A stretch of 40,000 bases of DNA, taken from the NCBI RefSeq assembly GCF_011009015.1, contig NZ_CP048878.1:2656354-2696353 (forward strand), read 5' to 3'. The notes beneath the pieces are model-generated. The model was not told where the DNA came from. It was given only the letters and a program-made list of their open reading frames with translations, and searched no databases. A program made the position numbers and the translations under genes. Shown piece by piece: positions 23,487 through 38,461 of this stretch. The stretch's first letter is position 1. Each line of letters opens with the position of its first letter. This DNA comes from Spartinivicinus ruber. GTDB taxonomy: Bacteria > Pseudomonadota > Gammaproteobacteria > Pseudomonadales > Zooshikellaceae.

Positions 23487-24206
23487 ATGACACAATGGCA
23501 TTATGCAGTTAACGGAGAACAAATAGGCCCTGTTAGCATTGATGATATTAAAGTCGCTGTTAATGCAGGTAAAATAACTACTTCGACGAAAGTATGGAAT
23601 GGTAAAGGGGATTGGAAACCTGCTAAGGAAACACGGTTATTTGACATTTTAAAATCAGCAGATCCAGCAATTCCTCCACCTCTAGCTTCTGAGGATGTAG
23701 CTAATAACTTCATTTGGATATTGATAGTAGTTCCAATTCTAGGAGTTACTATTGATTTTATTATTGGTACAGTTTTGATTTTTCCATCATTTATCGCCAA
23801 TACTATTTTATGTATAATGGACATAAGAAAGTTGAAGGCAGCGGGTTACATTGCGCCAAATCATTGGACGGTTTTTATTGTACCTGTTTATATATGGAAA
23901 CGTGCAACATTACTAAATCATAAAAGGAACTACTTTTATAGTTGGATAGCTTCTTTTTTCTTGTCAATATTCCTTGCTATTAGTGGTGCTAGATTAATTA
24001 TAGAAGAAGCTGCCTGTCCTATAGTCACAGATATAATCAAATCACAATTATATAGTTCAGCAAAATGTATGGGTGTGAGTATAAATAAAGAAGTAACAAC
24101 TGGTTTTTACAAAGCAACTGCAACTTTAGATAATGGGTATGATATTAATATTACCATTGAAGAAAAAGACAATGGGATGATTTACATACGAATTCCTAAC
24201 CAGTAA
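23487..24206 (+). CDS. GYF_2 (DUF4339)-domain membrane protein
   Basis: The N-terminus WHYAVNGEQIGPVSIDDIKVAVNAGKITTSTKVWNGKGDWKPAKE is the GYF_2 pattern. Three to four hydrophobic helices and a small C-domain follow. Confidence 0.65.
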   Translation: MTQWHYAVNGEQIGPVSIDDIKVAVNAGKITTSTKVWNGKGDWKPAKETRLFDILKSADPAIPPPLASEDVANNFIWILIVVPILGVTIDFIIGTVLIFPSFIANTILCIMDIRKLKAAGYIAPNHWTVFIVPVYIWKRATLLNHKRNYFYSWIASFFLSIFLAISGARLIIEEAACPIVTDIIKSQLYSSAKCMGVSINKEVTTGFYKATATLDNGYDINITIEEKDNGMIYIRIPNQ

Positions 24207-24259
24207 TAATGTGAGTTTAGTACAGGATAAAAGTAACAAACGGATCAGATGCTAGATAT

Positions 24260-24760
24260 ATGGATCTACTTAGTTGGATCAAGGCACCAAGAGAAGTTGT
24301 ATGGCCTTTAATAATCGTTAGCTGCTTACTGCTATGGGGGCCCGGATGGTTTGTACAAGGTTTGGGACTTGAAAGTTTCATTGATGAGTATAGAAAGTGG
24401 CTTGGAGTAGTATTCTTATTTTTTCTGATCGTAGGGATTCAACCAGCTATACCATCTGCATATAAAAAAATCATAAAGATGATCGACACACGTAAAAGGT
24501 TAAACAAAGCAACTGAGGAGATATCAAATCTTACTCCAAAAGAAAAAGAAATTTTAAGATATTATATTATCAATAATATCAGGACACAAGATCTAAGTAT
24601 TCAAGATGGTAATGTAAATATTTTAATTTCAAAGGGCTTCTTAATTTTGGCATCAAGTGTCAGTTATGGAGGCATGAAGGGTAGTTTTACTTTTCCAGTA
24701 AATATAACTGACTGGACATGGAACTACATTAGAAAGAATCCAAATGTGTTGGAGGATTAG
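24260..24760 (+). CDS. Two-TM membrane protein, SieB-like (superinfection exclusion candidate)
   Basis: Two N-terminal TM helices are followed by LTPKEKEILRYYI...DGNVNILISKGFL. This resembles the SieB-family pattern as I recall it; not searched. Confidence 0.5.
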   Translation: MDLLSWIKAPREVVWPLIIVSCLLLWGPGWFVQGLGLESFIDEYRKWLGVVFLFFLIVGIQPAIPSAYKKIIKMIDTRKRLNKATEEISNLTPKEKEILRYYIINNIRTQDLSIQDGNVNILISKGFLILASSVSYGGMKGSFTFPVNITDWTWNYIRKNPNVLED

Positions 24761-25284: not shown

Positions 25285-25354
25285 GTCCTAACAAAGCGCT
25301 GCTAGGGAAAAACCTACGCTGTGCTTCGGTTTTCCCCAGAGCACGGCGTTAGGC
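25285..25354 (+). other. attC site (attC-a)
   Basis: R'' GTCCTAAC, 5-nt spacer, L'' GCTGCTAGG, stem GGGAAAAACC/GGTTTTCCCC, L' CCAGAGC, 5-nt spacer, R' GTTAGGC. Confidence 0.8.
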
Positions 25355-25376
25355 TTCAAAAAGGAGGTTATCAGCA

Positions 25377-26051
25377 TTGTTTAACCTACTTATTTCAGCA
25401 AACCCGGAGAGTTGGGATTCACCTCATTGGGAAATCGAGCGAGCTAGGGCAGTTGTTGAATATACTGCTGATGAAATCAGCGAGCGGTATAAATTCTTCG
25501 ATGAAAAAGCAATTCGGGAATTAAAAAGCTTTCCCTGCTTATTCGTCATAGAGAACGAATATAAAGAATCTCGAATTGGATATATCACAGATATTAGGGT
25601 TCGGCAGAATACCGTCGTAGTAGATTTTGAGTTTGATCCAATCCTCCCTTTCTTGCCGATTGGATCAATAGAAAACCTAAGAGCAGATATCGACCTAGGT
25701 CGTTGGGAATTGTCTCGAACTCATTGGGCTGTAAAAGATGAAGCTATTTTTGATATTTTGCTCAAGCACGGCCTAATTACCCTACAGCAGTTAAATGCAT
25801 CGCAAGCATTAAAAGAGCCACCGCCACCACCTATAGTTCCGCCAGCAACTGCTGACGGTTCGGTTCCATTCAACACATCACAAGTATTCATTGTGCATGG
25901 CCATGACGAAATCGCTAAATTAGAGATAGCCGAGTTCATCGAAAGCCTAGGCCTGGAACCTATTATTCTTCATATGCAAGCTAGTTCGGGGCGCACAATA
26001 ATCGAAAAGATCGAACATTACTCCAATGTTGGGTTTGGTGTCGTACTTTAC
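25377..26051 (+). pseudogene. TIR-like (COG4271/PF10137-type) protein, 5' part, cut by IS3-family insertion
   Basis: TTG start with AAGGAGG SD. An uncharacterised N-domain is followed by a PPPPP linker, then VFIVHGHDEIAKLEIAEFIESLGLEPIILH...GFGVVLY, which is interrupted. Confidence 0.8.
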
Positions 26052-26107
26052 CCCTCTCTGTCAGGCTAGTTGTCGTTTTTATTCACTGAGATGACGACAG
26101 ATAACTG

Positions 26108-26590
26108 ATGGCTAAATATACCAAACAGCAAAAAGAAAATATCTTAAAGCTATTGCTCCCACCCGAAAATAAATCAGTCCCAGTGGTACACAAAATGACT
26201 GGCATTCCTCAGTCAACCCTGCATACTTGGAAAACCAAAGTGCGAAGTCAATCTGCCAACATGCCGAAAGAAACATCAAATCAAAGCTGGTCATCAGAAC
26301 AAAGGCTTAATGTGATCATTGAGACAGCGGCCTTATCTCAAGCAGAGCTAGCAGCCTATTGCCGAAAAAAAGGGTTGTATGTTGAGCAAGTTGAGCAGTG
26401 GAAACAGGCATTTATTCAGCCAGAGCAACCCTCCCAGGAGCTAAAGAAAAGCTTGCAAGTGGAAAAGCAGCGGTGCCAACAACTTGAAAAAGAGCTAAAG
26501 CGAAAAGAAAAAGCACTGGCCGAAGCCGCGGCCCTGTTAGTCCTTCAAAAAAAAGCTCAGTCAATCTGGGGACCGGACGAGGAAGCCTAA
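26108..26590 (+). CDS. IS3-family transposase OrfA (HTH + leucine-zipper-like)
   Basis: 160 aa with an HTH (MTGIPQSTLHTWKTK) and a coiled-coil C-terminus. Confidence 0.85.
   Translation: MAKYTKQQKENILKLLLPPENKSVPVVHKMTGIPQSTLHTWKTKVRSQSANMPKETSNQSWSSEQRLNVIIETAALSQAELAAYCRKKGLYVEQVEQWKQAFIQPEQPSQELKKSLQVEKQRCQQLEKELKRKEKALAEAAALLVLQKKAQSIWGPDEEA
26547..26554 (+). promoter_or_regulatory. IS3 programmed -1 frameshift site (A8, A_AAA_AAA)
   Basis: The OrfA frame reads CAA AAA AAA GCT. OrfB lies in the -1 frame and is open across the site. Confidence 0.7.
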
Positions 26591-27633
26591 CGTCGTATGC
26601 GGATAGGCAACAAACAGTTCAGTTAATTGGGGAAGCCACAACTGCAGGGGCTCGGCAATTTAAGGCCTGTGAAGTATTAGGGTTAACCCCGCGCACTTAT
26701 CAACGGTGGCAGCAAGGCGGTGAGCTACAACCGGATGGCCGCACCACTGCACAGCGTCCATTGCCGCCTAATAAGCTGCCTCCCAATGTTCATCAACAGA
26801 TGCGAGAAACGCTGAATTCACCGGAGTTTGCTGACCTCCCACCTTCTCAGATTGTGCCTAAATTAGCAGATCAAGGTGAGTATATTGCCAGTGAAGCCAG
26901 CTTTTATCGGCTCATGCGGGCAGAAGGGTTATCAACCCATCGAGGGAAGACCCAATCTCGTCAACCCAAACCGAAAACCACCCACACGGCGACAGGCCCT
27001 AATCAACTTTGGTGCTGGGATATCACTTGGTTGCCAGGTCCCGTCACCGGCATCTTTTTTTACCTGTATTTGATCCTTGATGTTTTCAGCCGCAAGGTGG
27101 TTGGCTGGGAGGTGCACGATTGTGAGCGTAGTAGCCTAGCGGCAGACTTAATACAGAAAGCCTTCTGGCGGGAAAATCTCCATAAAATTCACCAGCAGCC
27201 CCTGATATTACATTCAGATAATGGGAGTCCAATGAAGGGAAGCGCTTTACAAGTCAAACTCGCTGAACTTGGTATTGAGCCTTCTTATAGTCGACCGCGA
27301 GTTAGCAATGACAATGCTTATGCAGAGTCCATATTTAAGACCACTAAATACCGACCAGATTTCCCTCACCAAGGGTTTACCTCATTAGAAAGCGCTCAAC
27401 GGTGGGTTGATCAATTTGTTCATTGGTATAACCATGAGCATCAGCATAGTGGATTAAAGTTTGTAACACCGGTACAACGCCATACAGGTGAAGACCTAGT
27501 TATTTTAAGCCGGCGGAAACAGGTTTATGAGCAAGCTAAAGCAGCTTCCCCTAACCGATGGAGTGGGAATATACGAAACTGGGAGTTGGCAGATGAAGTC
27601 CACTTAAACCCTGAGAGAAATCAAACTCGTTAA
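26554..27633 (+). CDS. IS3-family transposase OrfB (DDE/rve core), made as OrfAB fusion by -1 frameshift
   Basis: The -1 frame is open from the A8 run. It contains an HTH (ACEVLGLTPRTYQRW), WCWDITWL, HSDNGSPM and SRPRVSNDNAYAES motifs. Confidence 0.85.
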   Translation, partial: SSVNLGTGRGSLTSYADRQQTVQLIGEATTAGARQFKACEVLGLTPRTYQRWQQGGELQPDGRTTAQRPLPPNKLPPNVHQQMRETLNSPEFADLPPSQIVPKLADQGEYIASEASFYRLMRAEGLSTHRGKTQSRQPKPKTTHTATGPNQLWCWDITWLPGPVTGIFFYLYLILDVFSRKVVGWEVHDCERSSLAADLIQKAFWRENLHKIHQQPLILHSDNGSPMKGSALQVKLAELGIEPSYSRPRVSNDNAYAESIFKTTKYRPDFPHQGFTSLESAQRWVDQFVHWYNHEHQHSGLKFVTPVQRHTGEDLVILSRRKQVYEQAKAASPNRWSGNIRNWELADEVHLNPERNQTR

Positions 27634-27847
27634 TATCCATTTAAAACTGTGCAACTCCCCTCTTTAATTGAAGCTGCTGAGGATGGATGCTTTGCATCGC
27701 AAGGCGTCCACCAGAAGGAGCAATGGGTGTTGTCTGTGTTATTAATAATTAGCCCTAAATTGATTATTAATATTTATTATGCCTCACGTTTTGAGATAGC
27801 TCGATGAAGATAAGAAGATAACACGACAACTACGTTGACAAACACCG

Positions 27848-28097
27848 TTACACGCCCTGCGATGTCGGCTCTAAGTTTGGTGCTTTGAACGGCAACTATC
27901 GAGCGCGCCAAAATGTCGTATTTGAACACGGTTATTTAATTGGGAAACTAAGTCGTTCAAGAGTGACTGCGGTAGTTAAAGGCCCGGTCGAAACACCAAA
28001 CGATATTAGTGGGGTCGTTTACATTGCGCTAGACGAGAAAGGCAATTGGAAGAGTGAGCTTATAAAAGAGATGTGTAGTGCTGGTTATGTCGTATAA
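27848..28097 (+). pseudogene. TIR-like protein, 3' part
   Basis: In frame after the target duplication: TPCDVGSKFGALNGNYRARQNVVFEHGYLIGKLSRSRVTAVVKGPVETPNDISGVVYIALDEKGNW. This is the conserved core of TIR-like PF10137 proteins. Confidence 0.8.
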
Positions 28098-28177
28098 GCC
28101 TAACAATGCCGTAAACTTGGACGCATTTTTCGTTCGTTGCGCTCACTACAAATGCGCCGGTACGGCTGGCGTTATGA
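28098..28177 (+). other. attC site (attC-b)
   Basis: R'' GCCTAAC directly after the stop codon, L'' CCGTA.., L' ..TACGG, spacer CTGGC, R' GTTATGA. Confidence 0.8.
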
Positions 28178-28192
28178 CTCAAGGAGGACGAT

Positions 28193-28795
28193 TTGGCAGA
28201 GTTAGAAAATAGCAAAATAAAAGAGTTACTGCGAAGAACTAAGCTGACAACAAAGTCTCGGTACAAGGCTAGCGAGAGATTTGCAGCACACCAAAAGGTA
28301 TCGCAGTGGACTGTAGCTTTTATTTCTGCAGCTTTAATCTTTATACCTCTCTTCCAAGCCTATGGTGTAAAATTAACCATTCCTGAGCAACTATTGAATA
28401 GCTTTCAATCAGTTTTAGCTGTTATGGTGCTTGTTTATTCCTTATTGCTTGGCCAGGAAAATTTTGTATCTCGAGCGGAAGCGATGCATAGAAATGGAGT
28501 GGAGTTAGGAAGATTTGCTAGAAAGTTAAGGGGGATTCCTGATGGCTATAGTAAGTATGATGAGTTGGTAGAAGAGTACTATGGAATATTAGAAAAATAC
28601 GAAAATCACAAGCCTGTGGATTATTTATTTACTCGCCTTCACCAAAAACCCGAAAAGTTTTTAGAGTGGCCTGGATATTTTTGGCTTTGGCTTAGAGCTC
28701 AATTTTTCATGTGGCTTGGCTACACTCATTACATTGCCGCATGGTGTTTTGTTGGATACATTTTCTATTATATTTTTACAAATATTGCGTCATAA
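28193..28795 (+). CDS. SLATT-like multi-TM membrane protein
   Basis: TTG start with AAGGAGG SD. The N-terminal TKSRYKASERFAAHQK helix, two TM helices and the AEAMHRNGVELGRFARKL helix match my recollection of SLATT family layouts. There is also an aromatic-rich C-terminal TM region. Confidence 0.5.
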   Translation: MAELENSKIKELLRRTKLTTKSRYKASERFAAHQKVSQWTVAFISAALIFIPLFQAYGVKLTIPEQLLNSFQSVLAVMVLVYSLLLGQENFVSRAEAMHRNGVELGRFARKLRGIPDGYSKYDELVEEYYGILEKYENHKPVDYLFTRLHQKPEKFLEWPGYFWLWLRAQFFMWLGYTHYIAAWCFVGYIFYYIFTNIAS

Positions 28796-28830
28796 CAAGG
28801 GCCATCAAAACTGACAAATAAGTGTAGGCT
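28789..28830 (+). other. Degenerate/truncated attC remnant (attC-c)
   Basis: GTCATAAC is the exact complement of the cassette start TTATGAC at 28172. The right box is GTGTAGGCT rather than GTTAGGCT. The site is only about 40 bp with no clear L boxes. Confidence 0.35.
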
Positions 28831-28834
28831 ATAA

Positions 28835-29449
28835 ATGGAGTTTTCTAAATTGAACATAACATTTGGGATAGCTATAGGGGCAATAATAGCTGCTGTACTA
28901 AATATTATTGCGAACCATATAAGCAGAAGGGTAAATGAGAATGTCAAGAAAAAAACCTGTGTAAAAATACTGTTTGGAGAGCTTCTTAACGTTCTAAATC
29001 ATTATCAATTTTCGGGTATTCCCATTAGTCTAATAGACGGAGATGATAGAAACATTTCGGAAGTTATTAAGCGCATGGAGTTCGCCAAATACGGAGATTT
29101 TAAGGCAGTAAAAAATATAGAGCTATATGGTTTCCTTTCTGCTGTTCAAGTTCGCAATATTCACCAGCTATCACTAAAGATTCGAAATACAGACACTCTT
29201 ATAAAAAGCTATCTATCCTCAGAATTTGTAAATAATTCTGCAGCGACTCATGAAGAAATCAATCTAGTTCGTGAGATTGGCTCTCGAATGGATTACGTAT
29301 CAGATACCGCTGATCTTTTGTTATCTTATATTTCAGAACAGCACCCAGAATATAGTTCGTTATTTCAAGATACGAAGAATATCGAGAAGCCAAATTATGC
29401 GCTGTATCAGAAGCCTAATAAACAAAGGCAGCATCGCCTTGCGGGCTGA
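28835..29449 (+). CDS. Cassette ORF: N-terminally membrane-anchored 204-aa protein, unknown function
   Basis: One TM helix (ITFGIAIGAIIAAVLNIIA) followed by a predicted helical soluble domain. Confidence 0.6.
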   Translation: MEFSKLNITFGIAIGAIIAAVLNIIANHISRRVNENVKKKTCVKILFGELLNVLNHYQFSGIPISLIDGDDRNISEVIKRMEFAKYGDFKAVKNIELYGFLSAVQVRNIHQLSLKIRNTDTLIKSYLSSEFVNNSAATHEEINLVREIGSRMDYVSDTADLLLSYISEQHPEYSSLFQDTKNIEKPNYALYQKPNKQRQHRLAG

Positions 29450-29485
29450 ACGCGCTAATGCGCGCCGCTTCTTTGGTCGTTAACT
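29413..29485 (+). other. attC site (attC-d)
   Basis: R'' GCCTAAT, spacer AAACA, L'' AAGGCAGC (extrahelical G), L' GCTTCTT, spacer TGGTC, R' GTTAACT. The right half is homologous to that of attC-e (GCGCGCCGCTT..TTGG.CGTTA). Confidence 0.65.
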
Positions 29486-29498
29486 GCTCGGAGGAAAG

Positions 29499-30110
29499 AT
29501 GAGCGCTGTAGAAGTATTTTCTATAATTAAAGATGTTTTTCTTGCAGGAGCAGCAGGTACTACAGCATATGTAGCATATACTGGACTTGAAAAGTGGCAG
29601 AAGGAACTCCGAGGAAAAGCCAACTTTGAAGTTGCCAGAGAACTGATTAAGTCGGTCTACAAGTTAAGAGATGAGATTGGTTATTGTCGCTCTCCGTTTA
29701 TTTTTGCGGCGGAATTTCCTGACGGGTACAAAGGCTCACTAGGTAAGCATACAGCAGAGGAAGAAGGACAAGCATGGGCATATGTGTACTCTAAAAGATG
29801 GGAGCCTGTTGGCCAAGCAGTTCAGCATTTTGATGCTGCTGTGTTAGAAGCTGAGGCGCTTTGGGGTGTGAGCATTAAGGAAAAAGCTAAAGAGTTGCGC
29901 CAGTGTGTCCGTAGCCTTCAAGTAAATATTGAAGCCGTGATTGCAGATAAATATTCTGGTGGTGAAGATTTCAAAGACAAAGACTTTGCTAAAAAAGTAC
30001 GGTCTGCGGTTTCTGATACTAAATCCATAGAAAACGAATTAACCAATAAAATTGACGTTGCAATAGGTGGCCTAGAGTCAAAAATCAGGCCGCATCTATC
30101 GCGCAGCTAA
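29499..30110 (+). CDS. Cassette ORF: N-terminally membrane-anchored 203-aa protein, unknown function
   Basis: GGAGGAAAG SD. One TM helix (VFLAGAAGTTAYVAYTGL) followed by a helical domain. The architecture matches the preceding cassette ORF. Confidence 0.65.
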   Translation: MSAVEVFSIIKDVFLAGAAGTTAYVAYTGLEKWQKELRGKANFEVARELIKSVYKLRDEIGYCRSPFIFAAEFPDGYKGSLGKHTAEEEGQAWAYVYSKRWEPVGQAVQHFDAAVLEAEALWGVSIKEKAKELRQCVRSLQVNIEAVIADKYSGGEDFKDKDFAKKVRSAVSDTKSIENELTNKIDVAIGGLESKIRPHLSRS

Positions 30111-30165
30111 CAAGGTGCTCAAGCTAGGACGTGATACCGCGCGCCGCTTAGCTTGGCGTTAGCCT
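30106..30165 (+). other. attC site (attC-e), canonical 60-bp form
   Basis: R'' AGCTAAC, AAGGT, L'' GCTCAAGC (extrahelical C), loop, L' GCTTAGC, TTGGC, R' GTTAGCC. This is the same layout as attC(aadA7) recalled from memory. Confidence 0.85.
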
Positions 30166-30264: not shown

Positions 30265-30790
30265 ATGTCTAAACCTATTTTTGTCTGGATGGGCGGCAAG
30301 CGCCGTTTAGCCAGGCACATCTTACCGTTATTTCCTGATCACACCTGCTAGGTTGAACCGTTCTGTGGTCAGCCGCATTATTTTTTATGAAGGAGCCGTC
30401 GAAAGCAGAGGTATTAAATGATATTTCGTCGGATGTGATTAACTTATTCCGGGTAGTGCAGCATTACTTAGAAGAATTTATCCGACAGTTTAAGAAGGCT
30501 TTGGTTAGCCGCCAGTTATTTGAGTGGGTAAAATAGTACCCCACCTGAAATGCTAACCGATATCCAACGAGCAGCACGGTTTTACTAGCTGCAGCAGCTG
30601 ATCTTTGGTGTTAAACTAACTGGCCGAACCTTTGGCACCACACTATTAAGGTTTAACTTAATCAGGCTAAAAGAAACCCTTTCACAAGCTCATTTGAGGC
30701 TAGCAAGGGTAACAATAGAGAACCTGGATTGGCAGCAATGTATTAAAACGCTACGACTGGGAACATGGAAGTTTAGAGCGCACTAGTGGG
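30265..30790 (+). pseudogene. Dam-type (D12 class) N6-adenine DNA methyltransferase pseudogene
   Basis: MSKPIFVWMGGKRRLARHILPLFPDHTC*VEPFCG, then a frameshift, then AALFFMKEPSKAEVLNDISSDVINLF..., then further stops and shifts (RAARFY*). The DPPY motif is absent. Confidence 0.75.
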
Positions 30791-33701: not shown

Positions 33702-34832
33702 ATGAATACCATTAATCCTGTTTCTGTTACACAGCAAGTAACAAATTTAAATAATTTACCTGGTAGTGAATCTAGGAAAGTACAAAACCAAGTATCAAGT
33801 TTATCTGAATTAACTAGAAAAATTGGTGCTAGTGTTGCTGAAAGTATTCAAGATCAGCCACTTTCTAGAAAAAAACGCGGTATTCCACCTGATTGGCAAC
33901 CATCTCAACCTGAGCCAAAACCAGAAAAAAGTGATAATAGTTATGTTACTGTTGAACCAGTACCTTACGAACTAAGGTTTACATGGGGTGGTAGCTCAGC
34001 GGCAGAATATCTTGATGCTTTCGCTAGGCCTTGGTCAAATGCTGCAGAAATTGGTTCTAAATTTGTGAGCGCTGCAAGAGGCGACTCGATTCAGGAAGCT
34101 GATGCAAATTCTGCTAGTACAAAAGAGAAAGCTAAACCAGCAGATTCAATTATAACAGGGATTATTGGCTTTTTGGGTGGACCTTTTGGGAGAGGTTTTG
34201 CAGGACTCCAACAAATTGCTGGCCAAGCATCAGATACTTTAGAAACAGGCAAGCCACCTGAAATTCCAGTTGATCCACGAATCTTTGGTGGTGGTCCAAA
34301 CCTAGCTGCTGGAAGAAGACCAATTATTCCAAGAGAAGAAATTTCAGAGCCGACAATTACTCCTGAAAGTACACCTCGTGTTGAGGGTGAGCAACCGGTG
34401 GAAGTAGAAGAAGAACAAGTTAATGTTAGATGCAGAAGGACTTTAGGGGGAGAGTGTTCTCCTGGACCGTCAAGTAGCCAGGGAGCTGCTAATGTTCGTG
34501 AGACTGCTCGGGCTGATTATGAAAATGAATTTCCAATTAATAACCCTAAAGTAAAAAATACGACGGATAATCTTTTTTCGAAGACAGACCCTGCTCATGG
34601 AGGAGATACTACAGCTTCATCTGCAAGACAAGAGCTTGAAGAATCTCACTCAACTGCATTAGTACTCCATGATGGAAGTGCTCAAGCTAAACTATTTAAC
34701 TCTGAAGCTGTATCAAGACCTGACTCAGCTGGTGAAAGTGTAGACTTTGTAGGGAAGTTAAATTTGAATGGTGAAACAATAGAGGTAGGATTAGACCCCT
34801 TCCAGCCGCCTAATACCAATCCTGTTTATTAG
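33702..34832 (+). CDS. Low-complexity, probably disordered secreted/effector-like protein
   Basis: I prefer the ATG at 33702 (MNTINPVSVTQQVTNLNN...). It is S/T/N/P/E-rich with no TM helix or signal peptide. The last 5 codons are supplied by the IS630 end. Confidence 0.55.
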   Translation: MNTINPVSVTQQVTNLNNLPGSESRKVQNQVSSLSELTRKIGASVAESIQDQPLSRKKRGIPPDWQPSQPEPKPEKSDNSYVTVEPVPYELRFTWGGSSAAEYLDAFARPWSNAAEIGSKFVSAARGDSIQEADANSASTKEKAKPADSIITGIIGFLGGPFGRGFAGLQQIAGQASDTLETGKPPEIPVDPRIFGGGPNLAAGRRPIIPREEISEPTITPESTPRVEGEQPVEVEEEQVNVRCRRTLGGECSPGPSSSQGAANVRETARADYENEFPINNPKVKNTTDNLFSKTDPAHGGDTTASSARQELEESHSTALVLHDGSAQAKLFNSEAVSRPDSAGESVDFVGKLNLNGETIEVGLDPFQPPNTNPVY

Positions 34833-35904
34833 CTTGTTAAAACAGCCCAACATCTGGAGCACAAGCTTTTAATGTTATTTTTCTTATTCACAAATACATT
34901 CCATGCCTCACAACAAGACTCAACAATATCATTGAAATTTTTAAAACAACGATTTGCCAGTGAATCTTCTCTCAGTTTTTCCCATATCCGCTCTACCGGG
35001 TTAAGCTCTGGGGAAACGGGTGGTAAATTTAATAGCGTGATATTCGCAGGTATTTCTAGGCGATGAGTCGTATGCCATGCCGCTTGATCAACGATAACCA
35101 GTCCGTGTCTTCCCTTAGAAATGGCTTTTGAAATTTCTGTTAAGTGCAACCTCATTGCTTCTGTGTTAGCAATAGGTAATACAAGAGCCACTCCTCTATC
35201 TTTAGCAGGACACACAGCGCCAAAGAGATAAGCTGACTCAAACTGTTGTTGCTTTACCACTCGTGGACGCGTACCTTTCTCTGCCCAAATACGCGTACAG
35301 GTATTTTGCTGACCCACTCTGGCTTCATCTTGAAACCAAATATCAACTTTATCTGGAGAAACGCATGAGGGAAGTACTTTTAAGGCCTCTTTTTCAAAGT
35401 TTTTTTAAATGCTTGCTGTTTATCTGGGCGATGATTAGGATGTTTAGATCTTGATGTAATCCAAGAAAGTCCTGCTTTATGCAATACTTCATAAATACTA
35501 CTTAAGCTGTAGTCTATATTAAATTGTTCCAGCAGCAACTGTTGTATGTCTTTACCCTGAACTCTACCGCCTTGACGATGGTTTTGTAAGGTAATAACCG
35601 CTGCTTTAAATTCATTATATTGTGAAGGACAAAGAAACGGTTTTTTTCCTCTACCGGGTTGTTCATAAAGTCCTTCAAGGCCATCTCGTCTAAAACGGTT
35701 GAGCCAGTCCTGAATGGTATTGTTTGATTTCCTTAATGCTCGTGCTATTTCAGTTTGAGACCAACCTGCTTGTAAATGAGCCATCGCTAATAAGCGAAGC
35801 CGTGTTCTTGGATGTGGTTCTCTGTTCAGTAAGGCATCAAAGTCGTAGTCATACAATTCATCTGGAATAGAAGCAATCCTTGCCATTATTAAATTCCTAG
35901 TCAA
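34829..35904 (-). CDS. IS630-family transposase (two frames joined at an A7 run)
   Basis: The N-part has an HTH (35904-35380). The C-part has WFQDEARVGQQ...QQQFESAYLFGAVCP...LNPVERIWEKLR. The -1 frame is open from the A7 run and gives ...QQAFKKNFEKEALKVLP.... Confidence 0.8.
35400..35406 (-). promoter_or_regulatory. A7 slippage site joining the IS630 transposase frames
   Basis: The minus strand reads TTT AAA AAA ACT. A -1 shift yields AAA AAC TTT GAA = KNFE, continuing the typical AFKKNF motif. Confidence 0.55.
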
Positions 35905-36755: not shown

Positions 36756-38027
36756 TCAGTATAGCGAGACTTTCGGCAGCTCATCCCAGTTAGTAAAAAA
36801 GTGAGGTGACAGGTGACGTCTTACTAACTTCCACGAAGGATTAATACCATTACTAGCTAAGAATAGCCCTTTAGGATAACGTCTATTGATGTCATCAACT
36901 ACTTGCATTAAGCGTTTAGATTTTGGTGTATCTAGCATGGGGGTGAACAAGTCTTGTTGTATAACTTGTTGCTCACAAATCTCACTCAACATGACTCCAG
37001 CCTTAGCATAGGCATGACCAGACCTGAAAATATGGTGAAGCCCTTGGGTTGCCATTTCTACCAGTAGTCGTGTATCAGAAGTTGGGTGGGGGAGCTGCAC
37101 CAAAGCGCTATTACGGTATTGTGGTACATCCGCAAAGGGGCTAGTACGAATAGAAACAGTAATGTTATGTGCAGATGATCCCTGGGCTCGTAGCTTTTCT
37201 GCCGCTCGTGCTGTATAGGTGCTAATCGCTTCTCTCAGATGCTCCAGCTTATAAAGGCGTTGTGAAAACGAACGACTACAGATGATTTGTTGCTTAGCGG
37301 GAGCTTCGTTTTCTAAATCAATACAAGACTCTCCATTAAGCTCTCGAACAGTACGCTCTAAAACAACACTATAGCGTTGTCGGATTAACGTGGGCGGCAT
37401 ACAGGCCAGGTCATAAGCCGTTTTCATCCCCATATTAGTAAGTGACTTATAAAGGCGGTGCCCAACCCCCCATATTTCCTCCAATGGCATGAGCTTGAGC
37501 AGTTCTTCTTGAATGGTTGAATCAGTTGCGTCAAATACACCACCCGTTTCAGGGTGCTGCTTAGCATAATGATTTGCAAGTTTGGCTAGCGTTTTTGTTT
37601 TAGCAATACCAATACTGACAGGTATGCCAACTTGCTTCATGACTTGTTTTTTAATCATTACAGAGTAATCAGAGATAGAATCAATAAACTTGCAATGAGT
37701 TAGCTCCATGAACATTTCATCAATAGAGTAACGCTCGGTGTCAGGTACGAATGACTCAAGTATCTGCATGACTCGCTCAGAGATAACCCCGTAATTTTCA
37801 TAGTTTGATGAAAATAGTTGAATATTATGTTGTTTAATCAGGTGCATTACTTGAAAAACTGGTACACCCATTTTGATGCCTAGTTTTTTTACTTCATTTG
37901 ACCGCGCAACAATACAGCCATCTTGGTTTGATAAGACAGCTATTGGCTTATTTTCCAGGTCAGGCCGGAACAAACGTTCACAACTTGCATAAAAATTGTT
38001 GCAATCAACAATAGCGATTTTTTTCAT
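36756..38027 (-). CDS. umuC: DNA polymerase V catalytic subunit UmuC (Y-family)
   Basis: MKKIAIVDCNNFYASCERLFRPDL...SIDEMF... is the Y-family signature. ATGA overlap with the umuD stop. I prefer the start at 38027 over 38066. Confidence 0.9.
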   Translation of the reverse strand: MKKIAIVDCNNFYASCERLFRPDLENKPIAVLSNQDGCIVARSNEVKKLGIKMGVPVFQVMHLIKQHNIQLFSSNYENYGVISERVMQILESFVPDTERYSIDEMFMELTHCKFIDSISDYSVMIKKQVMKQVGIPVSIGIAKTKTLAKLANHYAKQHPETGGVFDATDSTIQEELLKLMPLEEIWGVGHRLYKSLTNMGMKTAYDLACMPPTLIRQRYSVVLERTVRELNGESCIDLENEAPAKQQIICSRSFSQRLYKLEHLREAISTYTARAAEKLRAQGSSAHNITVSIRTSPFADVPQYRNSALVQLPHPTSDTRLLVEMATQGLHHIFRSGHAYAKAGVMLSEICEQQVIQQDLFTPMLDTPKSKRLMQVVDDINRRYPKGLFLASNGINPSWKLVRRHLSPHFFTNWDELPKVSLY

Positions 38028-38461
38028 GGATAGCTTTTGTGAATAATATAAACAACAACACCCCAAATGATGCAGTCTTGCTCTTTAATCTCGATAGGAG
38101 AAAAATTGGGGTTCATAGGAACAAGCCAGCTCTGAGCATCTTTAATCTTTAATTGTTTGACGGTTAAGTCTCCATCCAGAGCAGCAATAACAATATTCCC
38201 TGACTTGGCTTCTATCGAGCGGTCTACAACAAGTAAGTCTCCTGGCTGAATACCTCCATTGGTCATAGAATAGCCCGATGCTTTGACAAAGAAGGTCGCA
38301 GCGGGGTGTTTGACCATGTAATCGTGAAGGTTAATCTCAGCTGTCACATAGTCAGATGCAGGGCTTGGAAAACCTGCCTCTACTGCCTCTAGATAGAGTG
38401 GAGCCGTTTGAAGGCTATCTAGCTCAAGCAGTTGGGCTCTATCAACTTGTTCTACGCGCAT
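38024..38461 (-). CDS. umuD: UmuD (LexA-like S24 self-cleaving protein)
   Basis: VEAGFPSPA (Ala-Gly cleavage site), the Ser (ASGYSM) / Lys (TVKQL) dyad, and a LexA box upstream. Confidence 0.9.
   Translation of the reverse strand: MRVEQVDRAQLLELDSLQTAPLYLEAVEAGFPSPASDYVTAEINLHDYMVKHPAATFFVKASGYSMTNGGIQPGDLLVVDRSIEAKSGNIVIAALDGDLTVKQLKIKDAQSWLVPMNPNFSPIEIKEQDCIIWGVVVYIIHKSYP

Follow-up and report, generated by a model that had tools for sequence, protein, structure and literature searches.

The window analysed here is a 40,000-nt stretch of Spartinivicinus ruber DNA (NZ_CP048878.1, positions 2,656,354-2,696,353 of the forward strand; assembly GCF_011009015.1; all coordinates below are window positions), in which a gene for a TIR-like protein, interrupted by an insertion sequence (IS), lies directly upstream of a gene for a SLATT-type membrane protein. 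The question raised by this locus is whether the two genes form a two-part defence or abortive-infection module, as had been proposed in an earlier reading made from the letters and translations alone (hereafter the sequence-only reading), or whether they stand side by side without joint function. We consider it probable that the locus holds two independent cassettes, one a stand-alone sensor-TIR abortive-infection candidate recently inactivated by an IS3-family element and the other carrying an orphan SLATT_5 gene, in a short cluster of integron-type cassettes just past the tail genes of a myovirus-type prophage.

The interrupted gene and the element that splits it comprise the following features.

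25377-26051, plus strand: 5' fragment of the split TIR-like gene with a TTG start, coding for residues 1-225 (N-terminal domain, proline-rich linker and first third of the TIR-like domain), called from the list of open reading frames (ORFs), the reconstruction and colinearity with homologues
27852-28097, plus strand: 3' fragment of the split TIR-like gene, coding for residues 226-306, among them the invariant RARQNVVFEHG motif with E250
26052-27847, plus strand: IS3-family insertion sequence of 1796 bp, apparently intact, ends set by three other copies of 1796 bp
26048-26051, no strand: left copy of the TTAC target-site duplication, read from the sequence
27848-27851, no strand: right copy of the TTAC target-site duplication, read from the sequence
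26108-26590, plus strand: IS orfA, 160 amino acids (aa), HTH_Tnp_1, with an A8G slippery site at 26547-26555 in the overlap with orfB
26488-27633, plus strand: IS orfB reading frame, -1 relative to orfA and open from 26488, with an rve DDE integrase core (E 8e-22)

In the ORF list, the frame at 25377-26069 terminates in a few foreign codons, and a fragment in the matching frame picks up at 27852 and runs to 28097. Joined, 25377-26051 and 27852-28097 yield 921 nt free of stop codons with a 306-aa product, in which ...GFGVVLY runs on into TPCDVGSKFG... at the junction. This junction was colinear and indel-free with 25 intact homologues in an alignment of 26 sequences, and at the nucleotide level the window flanks abut exactly on intact genes of three other genomes, which together indicate that the reconstruction is correct. 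The claim of the sequence-only reading that an ORF of about 306 aa is restored by removing 26052-27847 and one copy of TTAC was therefore upheld, with exact coordinates. A search across 5.8 billion proteins returned more than 7000 hits, the best 120 of which are 303-326 aa long and align over 99-100% of the query at 71-92% identity; over 100 intact homologues with lengths of 303-307 aa are colinear with the restored ORF. Homologues were found in Endozoicomonas (90% identity in Endozoicomonas atrinae), Pseudomonas, Marinobacter, Desulfobacter, Vibrio, Cycloclasticus, Methylobacter, Shewanella and others.

Membership of the insert in the IS3 family, as earlier proposed, was indicated by the 0/-1 arrangement of orfA and orfB with a slippery site, a DDE (rve) transposase, inverted repeats and the short TTAC duplication, and by a score of 196.9 bits for orfB against the NCBIfam transpos_IS3 model (cut-off 160); a plasmid search yielded only distant relatives, annotated as IS3 family. 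The 18-nt inverted-repeat cores (26059-26076 and 27823-27840; 3 mismatches) stop 7 nt short of the ends that gene restoration implies, and these outermost 7 nt show no complementarity between the two ends, an unusual trait in the IS3 family. A look-up of orfA in public assemblies gave three more flanked copies, from marine metagenomes (L116-L118), at 99.4-99.6% identity; each measures exactly 1796 bp, and all begin at CCCTCTCTGTCAGG and end at GACAAACACCG; three copies of the same length with identical end bases place the element at 26052-27847. An element confined to the TG...CA repeat cores (26059-27840) was rejected, as the additional 7 nt at either end are common to these copies and the ORF is restored only by removing 26052-27847 with one TTAC. 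No target duplication was seen around the three metagenome copies on their contigs of ~2 kb, probably through chimeric flanks that make them uninformative on duplication length. The empty site before insertion reads GTACTTTACACGCC. In the window, the duplication is perfect, the transposase frames are intact and both gene halves are undamaged, which together suggests recent insertion of an active element. The insertion falls between residues 225 and 226, within the TIR domain and upstream of E250, so that both fragments must be inactive. The sequence-only reading was thus right that the TIR-like gene has been disabled and the SLATT gene spared.

The C-terminal domain of the restored protein is a TIR domain of the Cap12/PycTIR type, with cleavage of NAD as a candidate activity. 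Pfam PF10137 (CAP12-PCTIR_TIR) matched residues 169-286 (E 3.5e-36; 124.2 bits, cut-off 24.7) over profile positions 1-118 of 119, in agreement with the earlier family assignment, and the family profile recovered the solved Cap12 TIR-STING chains 9lmq and 7un8, with RARQNVVFEHGYLIG aligned with VRDNVVFEFGLFLG and RARQNVVFEHG aligned with VRDNVVFEFG. E250 is invariant in 26 sequences and aligned with the E of VVFEFG in both chains; the equivalent glutamate of the NVxFExG motif is the catalytic residue of Cap12. An AlphaFold model of the full protein built with 26 close homologues reached a predicted local distance difference test score (pLDDT) of 59.7 and was set aside from fold searches.

Although the window protein shares the PF10137 family and the R-x-N-V-V-F-E-x-G motif with Cap12 (of CBASS) and PycTIR (of Pycsar), it lacks a STING or cyclic-nucleotide-binding domain, its domain order is reversed, with the putative sensor at the N-terminus, and no CD-NTase or cyclase neighbour was found in any of 56 loci with the full-length architecture. 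The NCBIfam Cap12 equivalogs scored 25 and 19 bits against the window protein (cut-off 450). To our knowledge, the PF10137 TIRs characterised so far (Cap12 and PycTIR) are NAD-depleting effectors, not signal generators. Cap12 cleaves NAD+ upon ligand-driven oligomerisation (10.64898/2026.01.15.699771), and a similar mechanism of ligand-driven oligomerisation and NAD+ depletion may be envisaged for the TIR-like protein by analogy with Cap12 and PycTIR.

The closest match among defence models was to PDC-S35, a phage-defence candidate, single-gene by the PDC-S naming, that is not known to have been validated experimentally; a literature search found no paper naming it. All five PADLOC PDC-S35 models matched the TIR-like protein (E 2.8e-77 to 1.3e-36), with the alignment limited to residues ~158-306 and the N-terminal ~120 profile positions unmatched. 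The likeness thus covers the C-terminal ~150 aa, which are 53-69% identical to the corresponding module of Flavobacterium, Pseudomonas and Clostridia proteins, and the lack of a conserved partner gene, whereas the N-terminal 145-aa domain of the window protein differs from the other types (MYYHVI..., MAKKQQP...). The TIR module occurs at 53-69% identity fused to at least three other, unrelated N-terminal domains (L068-L092), and is conserved as VFIVHGHD...TIIEKIE...RARQNVVFEHGYL...ETPNDISGVVY in proteins of Bacteroidota, Pseudomonas and Clostridia.

The unannotated N-terminal domain is the part of the locus that holds the most enduring interest.

25377-25826, plus strand: N-terminal domain of ~145 aa, a modular domain of conflict proteins

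Residues 1-145 gave no match to Pfam or PADLOC models. Searched alone against 1.84 billion cluster representatives, the domain matched 783 clusters (E<=1e-3), whose proteins measure 130-1109 aa and mostly carry it N-terminally. Fusion partners at the C-terminus were typed by Pfam among 95 longer proteins and comprised TIR_2 (24 members), PF10137 (19), Abi_C (7), TIR (6), protein kinase (5), SEFIR (5), FRG (4), and KAP NTPase, GmrSD_N and Schlafen AlbA_2 (1-2 members each). By type, the partners include TIR, HEPN-like, kinase, SEFIR and NTPase effectors, and PADLOC matched C-termini of N-domain proteins to PD-T4-6 kinases, NsnA/PD-T4-2_A and QatA/PifA-like proteins. Both the N-domain and the TIR module are therefore shuffled among partners, the pattern expected of a single-protein immune gene that combines a sensor with an effector. 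An AlphaFold2 model of the N-domain from a 107-sequence alignment reached a pLDDT of 97.2, and the structures that Foldseek matched to it, all weakly, were YTH domains, the N-domain of Lon and the PUA domain of RsmE (best E 0.017; template modelling scores of 0.40-0.44, 0.40 to YTH domains). Among viral models, the matches were to an uncharacterised phage protein (E 1.6e-3) and, weakly, to ASCH. The domain carries a conserved RTHWAVKD motif, and its modelled fold may be PUA-like, which is offered as a lead, not a result. We put forward as a tentative proposal that this domain is undescribed and acts as a sensor, possibly PUA-like, across hundreds of single-protein defence architectures, and rank it as a more probable novelty than a split Thoeris-like pairing at this locus (weighed below). 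Predicted to be well folded and widely fused, the domain would be a reasonable target for learning what single-protein TIR, kinase and HEPN systems sense.

The setting of the two genes is that of integron cassettes, delimited as follows.

25286-25354, plus strand: attC of the preceding cassette and left boundary of the TIR-like cassette, R'' TCCTAAC and R' GTTAGGC, bottom-strand hairpin of -31.4 kcal/mol
28098-28177, plus strand: attC of the TIR-like cassette and boundary to the SLATT cassette, R'' GCCTAAC and R' GTTATGA, hairpin-forming bottom strand
28193-28795, plus strand: SLATT_5 membrane protein gene, 200 aa, intact, TTG start, AGGAGG Shine-Dalgarno sequence
28790-28820, plus strand: truncated attC 3' of the SLATT gene, reduced to its R''-L'' half (TCATAACAAGGGCCATCAAAACTGAC), with no R' ahead of the next ORF
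28835-29449, plus strand: ORF of 204 aa with an N-terminal hydrophobic segment, in a composite cassette with the SLATT gene
29413-29485, plus strand: attC closing the composite cassette of the SLATT gene and the 204-aa ORF, R'' GCCTAAT and R' GTTAACT
30105-30164: fourth complete attC, called from its R''/R' boxes and hairpin-forming bottom strand

The four complete sites, called without a curated attC model, have RYYYAAC...GTTRRRY-like boxes and bottom strands that fold at -21 to -31 kcal/mol, giving the order of an ORF followed by an attC hairpin that identifies an integron gene cassette. The TIR-like cassette (cassette A) spans 25349-28171, measured 1023 bp before the insertion and holds a single gene. 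An upstream junction homologous to that of the TIR-like cassette, ...GGCGTTAGGCTTCAAAAAGGAG, is present in E. atrinae (L001), and the attC at 28098-28177 closely resembles the attC 3' of the orthologous cassette in the same species. That resemblance, together with the boxes and the hairpin, corroborates the bona fide attC reported between the TIR-like and SLATT genes in the sequence-only reading. The further claim that each gene could be mobilised separately held in part: a complete attC does lie between them, but the attC of the SLATT gene is truncated and this gene is inseparable from the next ORF. The truncation was seen by alignment with the complete attC after the SLATT genes of Pseudoalteromonas (L009) and a metagenome (L093); a scan with a crude attC detector found none at 28790-28820. 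An initial scan with a regular expression proved too strict and was discarded, its sole match being a false positive inside the tape-measure gene. No integrase was found in the 28 ORFs scanned, out of 52 window ORFs of at least 90 aa, and, judged from these, the cluster looks like attC sites without an integrase.

If the TIR-like and SLATT proteins acted together, their genes would be expected to travel together, and the sequence-only reading had itself taken a lack of co-occurrence in other genomes as speaking against its two-part module. Essentially no co-occurrence was found. Among five contexts of close homologues the neighbours of the TIR-like gene differ in each: in E. atrinae it is flanked by attC sites left and right, the loci of Marinobacter, Vibrio and Desulfobacter have an attC downstream and a GTTAG box just upstream, and in a Pseudomonas the gene is not part of an integron and has a relaxase as its neighbour. 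Scanning 185,579 species genomes added 80 loci, for a non-redundant total of 85, including 56, each from a different species, with the full-length architecture. With a hidden Markov model (HMM) built from 80 SLATT_5 proteins, nothing was detected within 5 kb of the TIR-like gene in the 56 full-length loci or in the five context loci. An all-against-all comparison of neighbours within 3 kb showed no family common to more than two loci. In the 85 immediate same-strand neighbours the commonest Pfam family was AAA_15/AAA_23, with 3 members, and the 25 commonest families included no SLATT; genes of OLD-like, AbiEii and restriction type also occurred there. An attC-like hairpin was detected on at least one side of the gene in 31 of the 56 full-length loci (crude detector). 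From the other direction, this TIR-like protein was present in none of 23 SLATT_5 loci. The module of two cooperating parts was accordingly not supported (0/56 on the TIR side, 0/23 on the SLATT side).

One comparable arrangement was found in two near-identical metagenome contigs (L101, 432-1566; L102, 652-1789), in which the gene for a 148-aa PF10137 protein precedes a SLATT_5 gene by 73 bp, with a 282-aa ORF next in line; the SLATT_5 protein is 58% identical to that of the window, and gene order and orientation are the same. As a general operon, the combination of a minimal PF10137 protein with SLATT_5 was rejected after a homologue search and three further contexts: three other members of the 148-aa family (L113-L115) have no SLATT nearby. 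The TIR-like protein of the window belongs to another PF10137 subfamily than these 148-aa proteins and has an input domain of its own.

The assignment of the 200-aa protein to SLATT in the sequence-only reading was firmly corroborated, with SLATT_5 (PF18160) matching residues 6-194 (E 2.3e-50; 171.1 bits, cut-off 29.5) and NCBIfam NF033631 scoring 140.1 bits (cut-off 60). The protein is 100% identical to a Spartinivicinus ruber protein, and hydrophobic stretches read from its sequence at ~39-59, 70-87 and 161-195 lie where the transmembrane helices of the family are expected. It also matched the PADLOC models of SLATT proteins associated with reverse transcriptases (RTs), best RTasSLATT (2.9e-33). 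Its close homologues, at 79-82% identity, are encoded by genes that stand alone, two of which have their own complete attC, and the close relatives L009, L010 and L093 have no RT. In the set of 23 SLATT_5 loci, an RT (L012, L105, L104) or a likely one (L108) was found at four more distant loci, and the remainder have assorted neighbours. The 204-aa ORF downstream has no match in Pfam, PADLOC, NCBIfam or PHROGs. As the attC after the SLATT gene is truncated, this gene is now fused with the 204-aa ORF in a composite cassette; a true two-gene cassette was rejected, given that the attC is truncated and not absent and that the 204-aa protein was not found in the 23 other SLATT_5 loci. Another example of the varied partners of SLATT_5 was observed at L095 (2173-3036) and L096 (2727-3590), where the gene is followed by one for a 287-aa protein with a DpnII/MboI-type restriction endonuclease domain (E 1.2e-44).

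Taken as two cassettes, the locus may be read as follows. Cassette A would encode a self-contained, single-protein abortive-infection candidate composed of a putative sensor or adaptor domain of ~145 aa, a proline-rich linker and a TIR domain. By analogy with characterised relatives, an infection-derived ligand or partner would bind the N-domain and cause the TIR domain to oligomerise; the oligomer would then cleave NAD+ via E250 in RARQNVVFEHG, and the infected cell would be stopped. An IS3-family element of 1796 bp destroyed the gene by inserting between codons 225 and 226 with duplication of TTAC. Cassette B would carry an orphan SLATT_5 membrane effector, its own attC having lost the 3' half, and the adjacency of the TIR-like and SLATT genes would have arisen through cassette shuffling, not joint function.

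Cassettes of this kind have been described as carriers of defence genes (Darracq et al., 10.1101/2024.07.02.601686). Like those, the window cassettes hold small genes of defence type between attC sites in a chromosomal array, and one cassette recurs in arrays of unrelated bacteria; unlike those, the window array is short and beside a prophage, with no integrase in view and one cassette inactivated by an IS. TIR is mentioned 0 times in the text of that study (10.1101/2024.07.02.601686). The single-gene TIR cassette seen here circulates at 70-92% identity among integron arrays of unrelated marine and soil bacteria, and in the window copy an IS3 element has cleanly disrupted, in nature, a defence cassette of predicted NADase type that was probably costly.

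The main competing explanation for the adjacency is a functional pair, in which the TIR-like protein senses infection and makes an NAD-derived signal, SLATT_5 breaches the membrane, and the IS has disarmed the two together. A precedent exists in type VII Thoeris (ThsB TIR and ThsH SLATT), which has been validated and signals with canonical cyclic ADP-ribose (10.64898/2025.12.03.692087). As in that system, a TIR-family gene is directly upstream of a SLATT gene on the same strand, the L101/L102 contigs repeat this order with a 148-aa PF10137 protein, and the SLATT clade of the window has no nearby partner of its own, so that a signal source acting in trans is conceivable. The window genes are, however, separate cassettes with a complete attC between them and no co-occurrence elsewhere, three other minimal PF10137 family members lack a SLATT neighbour, and the TIR-like protein already has an N-terminal input domain. 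Its TIR is moreover of the PF10137 effector type, whose characterised members deplete NAD and are not known to generate signals, with a putative sensor domain of its own, and apparently not of the ThsB type. The type VII ThsB sequences (Table S1 of 10.64898/2025.12.03.692087) appear to be a different TIR type, judged by eye without alignment, and the ThsB-type TIR and SLATT in one conserved operon that define type VII were not found here. A functional pair is consequently regarded as very unlikely. If real, a two-gene system would constitute a new route of signalling from TIR to membrane effector; the evidence points to coincidental adjacency. Scarcely any probability is given to a variant in which shuffled sensor-TIR and orphan SLATT_5 cassettes cooperate in trans, an NAD-derived product opening the SLATT_5 pore in a split Thoeris-like system that the IS has silenced.

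The SLATT_5 gene could instead be a stranded remnant of DRT10/UG17 that has lost its RT and is functionless or tolerated, the truncated attC belonging to the same decay. DRT10/UG17 consists of an RT, a non-coding RNA and a SLATT-5 effector, all three of which are needed for defence (10.64898/2026.04.29.721553). The window protein belongs to the same SLATT_5 family, has RTasSLATT as its best PADLOC match, is followed by a truncated attC and has relatives at 49-57% identity that adjoin RTs, as seen in L012, L105 and L104. Against this, neither the window gene, which is on an integron cassette, nor its closest relatives adjoin an RT: the 204-aa ORF has no RVT_1 match, and the upstream neighbour is the TIR-like cassette. 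The intergenic spaces of the window, where a structured non-coding RNA template would be expected in DRT10/UG17, are taken up by attC sequence. The closest relatives (73-84% identity; Pseudoalteromonas, Agarivorans, Aeromonas and metagenomes) have a constant length of 199-203 aa and intact ORFs, and every one examined stands alone, in two cases with a complete attC immediately 3' of the gene, which suggests a maintained solo clade and not independent debris. The window ORF is itself intact with a strong Shine-Dalgarno sequence, and a DRT10 remnant is thus considered unlikely. The solo SLATT_5 cassette clade raises the small question of what activates SLATT_5 without an adjoining RT or TIR. Equally to be weighed is whether the TIR-like protein is no immune effector at all, being a nucleotide-binding or regulatory cassette passenger whose loss to the IS was neutral. 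An immune role of the subfamily is a prediction, and homologues carry older database names such as 'predicted nucleotide-binding protein' and 'DNA-binding protein'. Such a role is nonetheless judged highly improbable in view of the strong matches to the PDC-S35 defence candidate, the invariance of the motif aligned with the Cap12 catalytic region, the presence of the N-domain in proteins that resemble validated defence proteins at the C-terminus (PD-T4-6 kinases, NsnA, QatA/PifA-like), the OLD-like, AbiEii and restriction genes among its neighbours, and the cross-phylum spread at 70-90% identity on mobile cassettes that is typical of conflict genes.

Several considerations weigh against the explanation by two independent cassettes. 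NADase activity, phage restriction and toxicity are predictions for the TIR-like protein and for PDC-S35 alike, and the role of the N-domain is inferred solely through its fusion partners, its fold matches being weak. The HMM used in the co-occurrence survey covers SLATT_5 only, the listing of immediate neighbours covers the 25 commonest Pfam families, and the attC detector is crude and missed known sites such as that of L006. On genomics alone, an interaction in trans still has to be reckoned with, since type VII Thoeris is real and the genes of L101/L102 adjoin.

Upstream of the cassettes, 1-22774 is occupied by the structural module of the myovirus-type prophage, with genes for an anti-repressor, large terminase, portal, protease, major head protein, baseplate, tail fibre, sheath, tape measure and a gpD-like tail protein. 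The attC cluster starts ~2 kb past the last prophage tail gene, and the cassettes may be prophage cargo or may simply abut the prophage. The intervening 23487-24760 is AT-rich DNA without attC sites that encodes a GYF_2-domain membrane protein (239 aa) and a homologue of the superinfection-exclusion protein SieB (166 aa, E 9.5e-28). Directly past the last attC, at 30266-30540, is a gene beginning MSKPIFVWMGGKRRLARHILPLFPDH and interrupted by stop codons, probably a pseudogene, whose product we take to resemble the N-terminus of a Dam-type N6-adenine methyltransferase. A second mobile element is present on the minus strand at 34829-35904, an IS630-like transposase in two ORFs (HTH, 174 aa; DDE_3, 162 aa), and is followed by umuD/umuC-like genes at 36756-38461.

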